Shown: positions 1 through 8,955, counted from the stretch's first letter. The stretch is DNA of 64,000 nt from an uncultured Bacilli bacterium (GCA_934155645.1 CAKPHC010000004.1:81220-145219); one strand, 5' to 3'. Notes: generated from the letters alone by a model not told the origin. Translations and numbers: made by a program.

Positions 1-3000
1 AAAAAGCATAAATGGTATATCATTAATAGTTGGTAGTAATGGTATAGGTAAAACATATTTACTAGAGAAATTAAAAAGACATTTTGAGTTAAACAAAATA
101 AATGTTAGTTTAATTAAATTTAGAGATTATGATAATTTACATTCTATAAAAGAAGCGGTTACATCTGCTTCAGAATATATTATATTTGACGGCTTAGATG
201 AGATAAATTCAAATATTCAAAATAGTGTTTTACAATATGCATTGTCTATAAAAGATAAAAATATAATTATTTCTAGTCGCAGAGATTTTGCACTAAAAAG
301 GAACCTATTTGATATAAAATACAATGTCTATGAAATAAGACAATTGGAAGAGTCTAAAATTGATAATATTTTAAAAATGCATGGATTGAATAAAGAAAAT
401 TATAAGAATATATATAATCTATTAAAAACGCCAAGATTTTTAATTCATTTATTAAATGTTAAGGACATTATAAATTATAAGAATAATATAAACAAATTTG
501 ATTTATTAGAAATGATTTTAAACAAACATTTTGAGGTAGTAAACGAAAGAGCTATAATTAAAATAGAAATCAATATTCATAAAAAAATTTTACAATCATT
601 AGCGTTAGTTATGATGATGACTGGAAAGAGTAATTTGACAATGGAGGAATTTACAATTTTCCTTAGTAACATAAACCATCTTGACATTAAGTCTTATGTT
701 TTAAATAAGGATATTATTGAAAGCTTTTTAAATAATCAGATTTTACTTAATTATGGTGATTTAATTGCATTTGAAAACAAAGAAATAATGGAATTTTTGG
801 CTGCTAAAGAAATATTTGAAAATAATTTTTCTAATAAAGATTTATTTGACATAGTCACGATTGAAGGTACTAATGAAATAAATACTTTATGGTTTAATAC
901 AATATCATATTTAATATCTAAGTCCAAAATATATTTTAATTTAATTTTGAATTATATATTTAATAATTTGTATATTCAAGACAATTTACTAGATTTATTA
1001 TTAAGCATAAATTATAATTTTGATGATAAAAATATTATTGTCAAAAATATTGAAAAAATTATTTTTCAATATTCTAAACTTTATCAATATATGCCTTCTT
1101 CTGATAGCATGGGTAATATTTCTAAAGTGTTAACTGTTGATATAAAATTATGTTTTAGAAATTTAATTGAAATTTTAGTAAATAATAAAATAAAAATAGA
1201 TTTAACAGATTTTGATATAGTTTTTATTAATAATACTTTGTCATGTATTAATTATTTATTAGAGAATTATTCGTTTAATAAAATAGAAACAAAAAAATTG
1301 AAAAATTATTTATTAAAGAATGAAAAATATTATATACAAAGTGAAAATTTTAAAGTTAGATATTTATACATATGTTTAAAAATCTTTGAAACAACTGAAA
1401 TTGATAATTTACTTGAAAATAATAGTATTGATAAAAGATTATTATCCATATTTTTACATGATAAAATTCATTTGAATAGTTTAAAAAAATTTGATGCACA
1501 TTTAAATTATTATATATTAAATTGCAGAAATAAGTTTGATGATAATCTTATAATTAATGAAAATCTGATTGCTGAATTTATTAGTAATAATTATGATGTA
1601 AGTAGATTCAAAAATCTTATTAATGGTATAAAAGATGATAATAATATTGCAAGTTTCATTCATTTCTTAAATTCTAACAATTATCAAGATTTATGGATTA
1701 AACTTTCAAAAAAAAGTATTACTTCAATTCTATATAACAAAATAATAAATAAATTAGTTAATGAAAACCTACAAAACAATAGAGATATAAGAGAAGAAAT
1801 AATGTTTGATCGTAGAAATGGTGATGCTTTAGAAAAGATAATAGCATTGTGTATCAAATATAATTACATAACTATTGATGGCTTAAATAATCAAAGTTAT
1901 ATATCAGATTATATTACGAAATATATGCGAGAATTGATTATTAAAGTTTTTCTAATAAACTCTGAAAATATACAGATATTATATGAACAATTAGTCGACA
2001 AAAAATCTATTTTTTATGTTTGGAGACTTGACTTAGATAATGAAATCAGAATTAAGCTTGAACCTGAAATAAAAAATCTTTTCTCATCAGATTTTTTAGA
2101 ATATAAAAGATTGATAACAAAATATCAAGATAAAGATTATGTAAAAGTTGAAGAAATTTTAAAGAAAGTTGATTATGCTAATAATATATATTATAAAATT
2201 GATCGTATATATGATTTGATTAAAAACAGTAATCAGTTTAGTATAGTTAATTCAAATGTTATATTTAAAAATACTTTGAAATCATTTTCAAGAGAAATTG
2301 AAAGCCATATTTTGACGATAGATATTAATAAACTAGTTATTAAGGCTGTAAAAAAAGAAACTTATAGTATAAGTTATGATATACAATTATATCACAAGGC
2401 AATATTTATATTATTAAAAATGGGGTATGATATAAATAAATATAATGATATTAATGTTATACTTTTAAATAATAATATAGATAAAATTGAACCATTATAT
2501 AGTGATAATAATTATAAAAAACTGCTGGATTATGTTAGTAAAAGGCAATCAAAAGATTATGTTAAATTTTATACGTATGATATAATTGGAAAATTAAAAA
2601 AGTATAGTTCAAATGTTTTATTTCAGACAATATTTAAATGGTTAGACTATATAAATTTTGATGAATACAAAATTAATAGTATTTTATCTTTTATACTTGA
2701 TAATCTTGATTCATTAAATCATGATGAAATAAAGAAATTGAAAAAATTTAGAAAATACAAAATCTGTCAAGATATTTTGATTGAACTTGGTTTTGAAGAT
2801 GAAATAAAGAATAGAATTGATTATATCAAAAACAATCTCGTTTTTGAAGGAGATTTAATGTCTATAGAGAATAAAGGTAATTTTGAATATTCTTCTGGAA
2901 CCTATATTAATTCTTTAGCTAAAATTGGATACAAAAATAAAGATTATATTTATGATCTATTATCATTTATGTTTAATATATATAATAATGGAGATTATTA

Positions 3001-7409: not shown

Positions 7410-8955
7410 AAAATCTGAATATAAAGCTTTACTATTTAGTACAACAGTGAGGAATCCAGAAAGAATAAAGAATTATGTAAAAATGATATCAAATTATCAA
7501 AATAAATTATTAACTAATAATGTTATTATGCAAATAGTTAAAGATATAATAAAAAATAAATTATATTATACAAATTATGAAAGAAATAATCCATTGTTAT
7601 GGATTATATATAATTCTGATGAAGAGTTTTCTGATGAACAAGTACAAGAAATTATTAATAATTCACCACAAGATCATAAAGAGGCTGGTTTTGATCATGG
7701 ATGGCCATCAAGATTTGATACAATATTTAAAATTATAAAAGAATTTGGTTTTATTTATTATGAAATTAATAAGCCTATTGAAATATCCGAAACAGGTCAA
7801 TTATTGATTAATTCTATTTCAAATAATAATCCAGAATTAGAAGAACAAGCATTTCTTAATACATTAGTTAAGTATCAAAGAAATAACCCTTTTAGAAGGG
7901 TTCTGAATGAAAATCAACCATTTACATTATTACTAAAAGTACTAAGAAAGTTGAAGGAATATCCAATAAAAGATAATGACATGATATCAAAAAGAGAAGT
8001 AGCATTTATTATTTCTTCAGCATCGGATGATGAAAATCATATATATGAGCAAATAAAGAATTTAAGAGAAAAATTCGGCTTTGAATATAGTGATGATGTT
8101 ATTTATGAAGAATGTTTAAAAGAATTACATGCGCAAGGAAGAGAAAAAAAGTTTAAAAAGAAAAATATACTAAAAGAGTTACCAGATGATTTTATCAGAA
8201 AAATGAGGATGACTGGATTAATAACATTACGCGGATATGGTAGATTTATAGACTATAATGCTGAAGAGAAAGAAAAAATAGATTATATTTTGAATAAATA
8301 TAGTGGTTATTCTTCTAAATATGAAGATGAATATGATTATTATGTGTATATGTCAAAGATAGATAGTAGATTGATTAATATATCTAGCAAAAAAAATACT
8401 ATTACAATAGAAGAATCCATTGATAAATGGACTGAATATTTCAATTGGGAAACAATAAAAAAGGAATTAAGTATATTGTCATCAAATAGAAAATCAAAAC
8501 ACGATATATTGAAGTTTATTGATGAGCCAACTAGACTAGAATTCTTGACAAGTATAGCTTTAAAAAAATGGTTTGTTGATTTAATTGTAAAACCTAACTA
8601 TTTAATTGATGATGAAGGATTGCCTAGAAGGCATGCAGGAGGTGGGATGCCTGACATCATATGTTATGATGACAATAATTATTCATTGCTTGAAGTTACA
8701 TTGCTTACTGGAAATCAACAATGTGTAAGAGAACTTCCATCAGTCGGTGATCACTTAAGAGATGCGGTAAAATATAATGAAGATGCTTTTACTATATTTA
8801 TTGCACCAACAATCCATCGCAGAAGTTATGAATACGCTGAATTTTTAAATTTTAAAGACGGATTATCAATTGTTTTATGCACAATTATGCAATTTGCTAG
8901 TACAATTGAATCGGGAATAGAATTCAATAAGATTAAGAATGTTGTGGAGTGTTAA
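7399..8955 (+). CDS. Putative restriction endonuclease partner (Type IIS-like), uncharacterised family
   Basis: Its start overlaps the methyltransferase stop by 11 nt, indicating translational coupling, and it has an AAGGAGG RBS. There is a possible PD-(D/E)xK-like segment (GMPDIICYDDNNYSLLEVTLL). No family could be assigned from the sequence alone. Confidence 0.4.
   Translation: MTNRKSEYKALLFSTTVRNPERIKNYVKMISNYQNKLLTNNVIMQIVKDIIKNKLYYTNYERNNPLLWIIYNSDEEFSDEQVQEIINNSPQDHKEAGFDHGWPSRFDTIFKIIKEFGFIYYEINKPIEISETGQLLINSISNNNPELEEQAFLNTLVKYQRNNPFRRVLNENQPFTLLLKVLRKLKEYPIKDNDMISKREVAFIISSASDDENHIYEQIKNLREKFGFEYSDDVIYEECLKELHAQGREKKFKKKNILKELPDDFIRKMRMTGLITLRGYGRFIDYNAEEKEKIDYILNKYSGYSSKYEDEYDYYVYMSKIDSRLINISSKKNTITIEESIDKWTEYFNWETIKKELSILSSNRKSKHDILKFIDEPTRLEFLTSIALKKWFVDLIVKPNYLIDDEGLPRRHAGGGMPDIICYDDNNYSLLEVTLLTGNQQCVRELPSVGDHLRDAVKYNEDAFTIFIAPTIHRRSYEYAEFLNFKDGLSIVLCTIMQFASTIESGIEFNKIKNVVEC

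Follow-up and report, generated by a model that had tools for sequence, protein, structure and literature searches.

The first 8,955 nucleotides of a 64,000-nucleotide stretch of DNA from an uncultured Bacilli bacterium (GCA_934155645.1 CAKPHC010000004.1:81220-145219; hereafter the window, with positions upstream of its first base given as negative numbers) are best read as the cargo of a site-specific integrative element with two exchangeable slots. This cargo comprises a STAND protein with a predicted nuclease domain, a restriction-modification system of the AlwI type and an AbiEi-Fic cassette, and its role is probably directed against phages. The probability of this reading as a whole was put at roughly 0.8. 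The region possesses five genes, all situated on the + strand, and an earlier reading of the same DNA (the original prediction) was right in placing three co-directional defence-type modules within these 9 kb. Its view of the region as a mobile defence island on a recombinase-bearing element also held, since both attachment sites and an empty site were found and the cargo was found to differ between relatives.

A two-slot element in an autolysin gene

The window was extended leftwards with contig L001, a 150-kb gut metagenome contig found by an exact look-up of the Fic protein. Over window 1-15459 the two are 100% identical, and L001 adds 5378 bp on the left side. The extension recovered the N-terminus of the STAND protein and the other attachment site of the element, about 630 bp upstream of the window, both of which the original prediction had expected in that direction. 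The protein look-up placed the identical Fic gene on 17 contigs, and the four which were compared are all 99.98-100% identical to the window, making it unlikely that the junction between the element and the amidase gene is an assembly chimera.

The element is about 13.15 kb long and extends from window -628 to 12,522. It interrupts an Amidase_3-LysM autolysin gene at its Gly-Gly-Gly codons, around codon 88. The 5' part of this gene (90 codons, window -888 to -619) is an Amidase_3 fragment (L001 4490-4762) ending with ...NHINSGGGEG-stop. The 3' part is situated at 12523-13648 (+), and a start-less open reading frame (ORF) from window 12512 reads ...GGEGAEVVYALRND..., followed by LysM repeats. 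The rejoined halves encode 461 amino acids which are 98% and 96% identical to the intact proteins P0038 and P0039, respectively. The sequence encoding P0039 (L011) represents an empty site, and close strains carry the intact amidase gene. Comparison with this empty site positioned the element's right end, attR (GTTACACAATGACCATCACCAGG), at 12500-12522 and its mirror-image left end (TAATGTGTAAC) at window -618 to -608, outside the window. At the left junction TTCAGGAGG is followed by AGGAGAAGGTTAATGTGTAAC, and at the right junction GTTACACAATGACCATCACCAGG is followed by TGGCGAAGGC. From these, attP was reconstructed as GTTACACAATGACCATCACCAGG+AGGAGAAGGTTAATGTGTAAC and attB as …AATTCAGGAGG+TGGCGAAGGCGCTGAAG…. 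The arms of the element form an imperfect inverted repeat (16/20), as expected of the attP of a serine integrase, and the crossover was placed within the Gly codons, near window -631 to -629 and 12520-12522. The large serine recombinase of the element (9992-11581, +) contains Resolvase, Recombinase and zinc-ribbon domains (Pfam 1.7e-21, 1.2e-24 and 1.2e-10) and is about 30% identical to TndX of Tn5397.

Alignment with the closest elements by blastn revealed three conserved DNA blocks, at window -666 to -205, 3767 to 5458 and 9006 to 12728, with unrelated sequence between them. The breakpoints are at window -205/3767-3794 and 5458/9006. According to these alignments, the backbone in the subfamily of the window is formed by a small ORF at the left end, AbiEi-Fic, a HTH_36 gene and the recombinase, with two exchangeable slots flanking AbiEi-Fic. 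Slot 1 (-205 to 3767) is filled here by the STAND gene. Elsewhere it is occupied by a gene of 761 amino acids, by a pair of genes of 237 and 511 amino acids, or by an AAA_21 gene with a 104-amino-acid ORF. Slot 2 (5458 to 9006) possesses in other elements a N6_N4 methylase with SWI2/SNF2, MazG with AIPR and a SLFN helicase, a D12 methylase with HNH, or MazG with SLFN and Mrr-nSTAND3. The STAND gene, at 80-98% identity, was found in slot 1 together with four different contents of slot 2. In the genome of the nearest species (L012), where the recombinase is 99% identical, the backbone and AbiEi-Fic are shared and both slots are different. The block is therefore not conserved core genome; a block conserved as core in relatives is what the original prediction had named as speaking against its view. 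The 31 related elements together contain 105 clusters of non-backbone proteins, most of them singletons. The dominant cargo is composed of Type I/IIG restriction-modification, AAA_21/AAA_15 ATPases with OLD-type TOPRIM, GajA/AriA-like (Gabija/PARIS) ATPases, SLFN helicases, Mrr, AbiEii and Fic.

Relatives of the recombinase were found in at least 121 species genomes (one genome per species was scanned), and 80 recombinase loci with 52-99% identity were kept. The hosts are nearly all metagenome-assembled genomes labelled as uncultured Bacilli, Mollicutes, Tenericutes or CAG-numbered Firmicutes. In 59 of the 80 loci, the recombinase has the 3' half of the amidase gene downstream of it, and in 26 loci both halves flank it (within 10-kb flanks), 4.2-14.4 kb apart. 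Dozens of species have their insertion at these same Gly-Gly-Gly codons. The ends ...GTCAxxGTGTAAC and GTTACACxxTGACxATCxCCAGG are recurrent; a strict motif search found them conserved in 27/31 left and 38/59 right ends, the latter rising to about 50 with near-matches. A second group of recombinases (L087-L091), 52-54% identical, has other ends and uses the same Gly codons. A TnpV gene (PF14198) adjoins attL in 19 related elements, for example at L031 6844-7209 (3.9e-28).

The conserved right arm (9006-12522, +) contains, besides the recombinase, the HTH_36 gene and an ORF of 283 amino acids. The HTH_36 gene is a single ORF of 176 amino acids in relatives; here a run of eight A residues at window 9547-9554 (seven in L012, L023 and L028) splits it into 9256-9582 and 9470-9781. 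The longer run is present in the independent assemblies L001 and L003, and the frameshift could represent decay or phase variation. Between the recombinase and attR is the 283-amino-acid ORF (11644-12495, +), which matches DUF5677 weakly (E 0.004). Only some related elements possess it, others having up to 5.7 kb of other genes there, and this location looks like a third variable position. The ORF at the left end of the element encodes 116 amino acids and has no match in Pfam, TnpV included. Outside the element, a tRNA-Trp gene is situated just downstream of the amidase gene (window 13760-13833), and the precomputed annotation of L001 lists a match to ADPrib_exo_Tox (PF03496) for the product of window 14200-14718 (-). 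A gene for a BglII-like endonuclease (L011 178-810) lies directly upstream of the empty amidase site, hinting that the chromosomal flank may also collect defence genes.

The AbiEi-Fic cassette and the restriction-modification genes

The cassette between the two slots (3767-5458, +) was delimited by the blastn breakpoints, and a promoter scan revealed a promoter-like site of its own at 3973-4001. Its first gene (4008-4610, +) encodes an AbiEi-family protein of 200 amino acids, which matches positions 3-192 of the 198 of the PADLOC AbiEi model (1.1e-54) as well as Pfam AbiEi_4 (2.5e-5). The second (4623-5459, +) encodes a Fic-domain protein of 278 amino acids (Pfam Fic 1.7e-12, 48 bits), which matches the first 271 of the 377 positions of the candidate PADLOC defence model PDC-S72 (9.6e-80). 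The genes are 12 nucleotides apart, and the ribosome-binding site of Fic overlaps the stop codon of AbiEi. Related elements share the cassette at 87-97% DNA identity, and most of them have other contents in the slots on either side. Across the subfamily of the window it is inherited as a unit whose spacing is identical, while the flanks vary. It was found in at least 9 species genomes and in 6 metagenome loci. Judged by this conservation, AbiEi-Fic belongs to the core of the elements in the subfamily, with a variable slot on each side, and is not itself variable cargo.

The active-site motif of Fic (HPFREGNTRTTA, nt 5196-5231) deviates from HxFx(D/E)GNGRxxR by the change of a glycine to threonine and of the last arginine to alanine, and both changes are kept in relatives. 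Among structures in the PDB, VbhT, Bep and NmFic are related to it at about 1e-10, and SoFic at just 5e-4. No canonical inhibitory motif (S/T)xxxE(G/N) was seen by eye in the N-terminus, and no VbhA-like match was obtained in Pfam. The protein is very strongly conserved and is abundant in gut metagenomes: over 120 clusters have at least 93% identity to it, and about 8000 matches reach E<=1e-20. One JGI copy, 93% identical, carries the name 'hypothetical protein ELI_1935', which hints at a spread beyond these Bacilli. Three phage contigs from the human gut, all unannotated, were also matched by Fic, and for one of these the match spans 96% of its length with 45% identity.

The original prediction had spoken of an AbiEi-Fic pair. 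Both genes are real and adjacent, but their status as a toxin-antitoxin unit found no support, as relatives show AbiEi-AbiEii-Fic, AbiEi with an additional ORF and Fic, and Fic alone. It is less likely than not that AbiEi and Fic are a genuine toxin-antitoxin or abortive-infection pair, with AbiEii replaced by Fic as the toxin and AbiEi neutralising Fic; such a pair would make either an anti-phage module or an addiction module stabilising the element. Such a pairing is favoured by the constant spacing and the overlap of the ribosome-binding site with the stop codon, by the inheritance of the cassette as a unit with its own promoter-like site between variable slots, by the match of Fic to a defence candidate model, and by the maintenance of an intact AbiEi at 66-95% identity without AbiEii. 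The gene content of the relatives argues against it. Fic is tolerated without any AbiEi in L088, L089, L091 and L032 (87-88% identity) and in L022 (78%), and therefore has no need of AbiEi. An extra ORF of 101 amino acids separates the two genes in L027 and L029. No AbiEii (DUF1814) was found among the proteins of the element by Pfam and PADLOC scans, while L036 and L085 possess AbiEi, then a true AbiEii (Pfam 6.8e-38 in L036), and then Fic. As these more distant elements carry the complete AbiEi-AbiEii-Fic order, the adjacency seen here is explicable by deletion of AbiEii. A search of the literature found no paper on the AbiEi-Fic pair or on PDC-S72, and in a Mycoplasma paper AbiEii/AbiEi forms one pair and Fic/RelB another. 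Based on these gene orders, loss of AbiEii would most simply explain the adjacency, and an orphan AbiEi regulator next to a self-contained Fic was rated above a new AbiEi-Fic toxin-antitoxin pair.

Slot 2 is filled by two genes which overlap by 11 nucleotides. The first (5475-7409, +) encodes a fused double D12-class (Dam-like) N6-adenine methyltransferase of 644 amino acids, matched by Pfam MethyltransfD12 in two stretches (4.4e-55). Its halves contain FAGTGS/DPPY and FVGGGS/DPPY, with the DPPY motifs at nt 6108 and 7134, and were matched separately by PADLOC MTase_II models (1e-127 and 8e-114). The second half is Dam-like (TIGR00571 dam, 6.5e-37). The second gene (7399-8955, +) encodes an AlwI-family, Type IIS-like endonuclease of 518 amino acids, matched by Pfam RE_AlwI (4.2e-39, 135 bits) and over its whole length by PADLOC REase_II (9.9e-149). 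For its C-terminal catalytic domain, a resemblance to the R.BspD6I small subunit was found (1.5e-7). The Pfam and PADLOC matches and the fold thus agree with the earlier identification of a double-Dam methyltransferase and a coupled endonuclease as a Type IIS-like system, and by homology the two genes are an ordinary AlwI-type restriction-modification system. The presence of two methyltransferase domains fits an asymmetric Type IIS site. The recognition site probably contains GATC, e.g. GGATC, judging from the Dam-like domain and from the specificity of AlwI. Avoidance of k-mers representing other Type IIS sites gave no clear signal in the window.

A difference in GATC content was observed between the element and its surroundings. 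In host DNA outside the element, GATC is depleted about six-fold (20 observed against 122 expected under a Markov model; window and L001 1-5378), and inside the element it is mildly depleted (18 observed against 29 expected). This pattern suggests that GATC-specific restriction has acted on the host lineage for a long time and that the element has had another history.

A larger role for the whole family can be envisaged. The elements would then be long-lived carriers of defence cassettes, retained throughout this lineage of gut Bacilli and combining a reversible switch of the autolysin gene, shuffling of defence genes between species through two slots, and a new AbiEi-Fic toxin-antitoxin, its atypical Fic controlled by AbiEi, which stabilises the element and aborts phage infection; this combination appears decidedly unlikely. 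The switch taken by itself was judged very improbable. It would make the element a conditionally excised intervening element which turns the autolysin off and on, like skin in sigK and SPbeta in spsM, with the defence genes as passengers. The precise split of the amidase catalytic domain, the restoration of a 461-amino-acid ORF 96-98% identical to intact genes on rejoining, and the use of the same codons in dozens of species, also by the second recombinase family, are in agreement with a switch. Against it, close relatives include occupied as well as empty sites, as ordinary gain and loss would produce, the excision junction was not found in JGI contigs, no sign was seen that the host differentiates or requires the amidase at a particular stage, and the cargo is overwhelmingly composed of defence genes.

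A NACHT-type protein with a predicted C-terminal nuclease domain

The STAND NTPase gene (window 1-3748, +) is represented in the window by the last 1248 of its 1291 codons. The ORF is open from window base 2 to 3748, the start codon is situated 128 nucleotides upstream of the window, and the full length of 1291 amino acids was obtained from L001 (5251-9126). The original prediction had placed an N-terminal effector domain outside the window. This was not confirmed, as the 43 missing residues lie directly before the P-loop, which starts at residue 54, and therefore no effector domain can lie upstream. The effector which had been sought beyond the window is instead a predicted PD-(D/E)xK nuclease domain at the C-terminus, inside it.

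The N-terminal part (2-1400, +) is predicted to form a NACHT module composed of a nucleotide-binding domain, a helical domain, a winged helix and a second helical domain. The motifs on which the NACHT-like label had been based were recovered by motif search and alignment on the + strand: Walker A (GSNGIGKT, 32-55), Walker B (DGLDE, 188-202) and the sensor-1 SSR (272-280), followed by an invariant PR at 431-436. The Walker B agrees with D[GAS]hDE, the signature of NACHT proteins (Kibby et al., 10.1101/2022.07.19.500537). The AlphaFold2 model of residues 44-560 has a predicted local distance difference test score (pLDDT) of 87 and a predicted template modelling score of 0.82. Comparison of this model with the PDB by Foldseek revealed NLRP9 as the best match (6e-9), with NLRP14, NLRC4, NLRP3 and NOD2 matching over about 460-600 columns at 6e-9 to 1e-6. 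Avs4 and the AVAST5 filament are likewise among the matches, and the fold thus supports the label.

Between the NTPase and the nuclease lies a region (1400-3350, +) without any match in Pfam, whose modelled ends are all-helical. By analogy with NLR and Avs proteins it is presumed to act as a sensor or scaffold. The predicted nuclease domain follows at 3350-3745 (+), with the putative catalytic D at 3470-3472 and ExK at 3515-3523. The model of residues 1000-1291 (pLDDT 84) ends in an alpha-beta-beta-beta-alpha-beta-alpha-beta domain. Its elements in model numbering, namely helix 164-181, strands 186-190, 202-206 and 213-219, helix 228-245 and strand 251-257, fit the alpha-beta-beta-beta-alpha-beta core. 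D1200 is at the start of strand 2, and E1215-x-K1217 is on strand 3. Almost all structures retrieved with this model by Foldseek are of the PD-(D/E)xK type, including Nt.BspD6I, BstEII, PspGI, Ecl18kI, the R2 endonuclease, DdmD, EndoMS, Mus81, SfsA and Shedu. The P-loop, D-x-L-D-E, R136, P187-R188, E1163, E1190, D1200, E1215 and K1217 are invariant in an alignment reaching down to 17-22% identity. The models and the conserved residues together indicate that the protein is a NACHT-type STAND NTPase with a predicted C-terminal nuclease effector. C-terminal effectors represent a minority among bacterial NACHT proteins (Kibby et al., 10.1101/2022.07.19.500537).

The family is small. A search of 5.8 billion proteins gave 37 clusters, and the 36 full-length homologues are all 1232-1305 amino acids long with the same layout and have no Pfam annotation except an occasional AAA. 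Weak matches to Pfam NACHT were obtained in 25 of 27 members (E<=0.1; best 5e-5). A single-sequence search of 1.84 billion representative proteins revealed 153 relatives at E<=1e-3, of which just 9 reached E<=1e-30. Most of these wider relatives are 1310-1400 amino acids long and match both the N- and C-terminal stretches. The nearest named families are the NCBIfam 'NACHT domain-containing antiphage proteins' EruA (NF058535) and HyoA (NF058534), which score 20.5 bits for the protein of the window and 27-54 for the wider relatives against cut-offs of 1000 and 1200; a literature search found no paper on either. No match to the STAND protein was obtained in plasmid and phage collections. The family is absent from Pfam and PADLOC and is considered new.

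The gene is regarded as a probable defence gene because of its genomic context. Homologues of 39-48% identity are positioned amid Dcm methylase, GmrSD, AAA_21 with RloB, SLFN-like helicase, MazG, UvrD, Type I/IIG methylase, reverse transcriptase and NERD genes. As a possible conserved partner, the gene upstream of the STAND gene was compared across homologues; it differs between them, which suggests a system of one gene. Type IV and McrBC-like restriction enzymes include NTPase-nuclease fusions, and the protein matches no validated defence model, so it could in principle be a housekeeping or regulatory STAND ATPase of the MalT/AfsR kind, which the original prediction had also considered, or a restriction-type NTPase-nuclease which does not sense phage proteins; this is hardly probable, as it possesses no helix-turn-helix (HTH) or other DNA-binding output domain, its fold is that of a NLR-type NACHT with a winged helix and not of a GTPase or helicase, its gene occupies an exchangeable slot used for defence genes elsewhere, its distant homologues always lie in defence islands, and the named families nearest to it, though weakly matched, are antiphage proteins.

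Weight of the evidence, proposed action and known systems

Several observations weigh against the reading of the region as functional defence cargo of a site-specific element. In PADLOC v2.0.0, no model was matched by the STAND protein or by seven distant relatives, apart from a weak match to the P-loop of mad8 (E 0.003). The Pfam NACHT model (PF05729) gave the protein of the window 19 bits against a gathering score of 26.7. The E-values of the nuclease domain in Foldseek are modest (3e-4 to 0.2), and no Pfam nuclease family was matched. GGATC (18 observed, 11.8 expected) and GAGTC (15 observed, 24 expected) are not clearly avoided in the window. No attP junction of an excised circle was found by pattern scans, with its own and a family-consensus pattern, of JGI metagenome contigs, which rarely capture such junctions. 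Finally, this copy may be crippled and may no longer move: its HTH_36 gene has a frameshift, and it lacks TnpV, which 19 relatives possess.

With these points taken into account, the following course of events is proposed for the defence cargo. A large serine recombinase similar to TndX/TnpX would have inserted the element into the autolysin gene of an uncultured low-GC gut Bacilli host. The STAND protein most likely recognises a phage component, upon which it would oligomerise in a NTP-dependent manner, and its nuclease would then cut DNA and abort the infection. In the restriction-modification system, each methyltransferase domain would protect one strand of the asymmetric site, and the AlwI-family endonuclease would cleave unmodified incoming DNA. 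AbiEi is most likely an autorepressor of the cassette, a remnant after loss of the AbiEii toxin. Fic is viewed as a self-contained enzyme, a candidate for defence or addiction, whose active site is atypical.

No genetic system exists for the uncultured low-GC gut Bacilli, and their phage defences are little known. Many of them have one integration site and one element scaffold in common, and reading the contents of the slots offers a simple harvest of candidate defence genes from these genomes. The compact family with a NACHT module, a helical region and a C-terminal PD-(D/E)xK domain is tractable for testing the swap of effector ends in STAND proteins. STAND sensors, Type IIS restriction-modification, AbiE, Fic and serine-recombinase cassettes are kinds of systems already known. 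What appears new is a STAND-nuclease family outside existing models, and a family of two-slot elements targeting an autolysin gene across many uncultured gut Bacilli. As the kinds of components are all known, the value lies in the new family, the modular architecture and the host range, and not in a new principle.

Comparison with known systems showed likeness as well as difference for each component. AbiEi of the cassette is a full-length homologue of the AbiEi of AbiE type IV toxin-antitoxin systems, with the winged HTH and the C-terminal domain, whereas the AbiEii nucleotidyltransferase, the defining partner in AbiE, is missing here though present in related elements. With the Fic toxins (VbhT/VbhA, FicT/FicA and Doc) and with the candidate PDC-S72, the Fic protein shares the fold and the core HPFxEGN..R motif, and it differs from the toxins by the altered residues of its motif. 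The restriction-modification genes resemble the AlwI, Nt.BspD6I and N.BstNBI systems in the full-length RE_AlwI match, the R.BspD6I-like catalytic domain and the two-domain m6A methyltransferase partner. EruA and HyoA are similar to the STAND protein in size (1318 and 1430 amino acids) and in the NACHT module starting around residue 30, and the C-terminus of some distant relatives matches HyoA weakly, but its scores are far below the cut-offs and it is not a member of either family.

At the level of the whole element, the literature search found no paper describing the two-slot layout around AbiEi-Fic or the host range in uncultured gut Bacilli. SCCmec-type serine-recombinase elements are known to carry defence cassettes (PMC11470126). 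The element resembles SCCmec (Ccr) and Tn4451/Tn5397 (TnpX/TndX) in its large serine recombinase, the target inside a gene, the lack of conjugation genes, the presence of TnpV in many relatives and the dominance of defence genes in the cargo. It differs from them in the distance of its recombinase from TndX and in its amidase-LysM target. With bNACHT and Avs proteins, the STAND protein has in common the NACHT fold, the signature D[GAS]hDE, one large polypeptide with a repeat or helical region, a nuclease effector, which is predicted here, and the association with defence islands. The order of its parts is different: the usual arrangement is effector, NACHT and sensor, whereas here the NTPase is N-terminal after about 50 residues and the predicted nuclease is at the extreme C-terminus.

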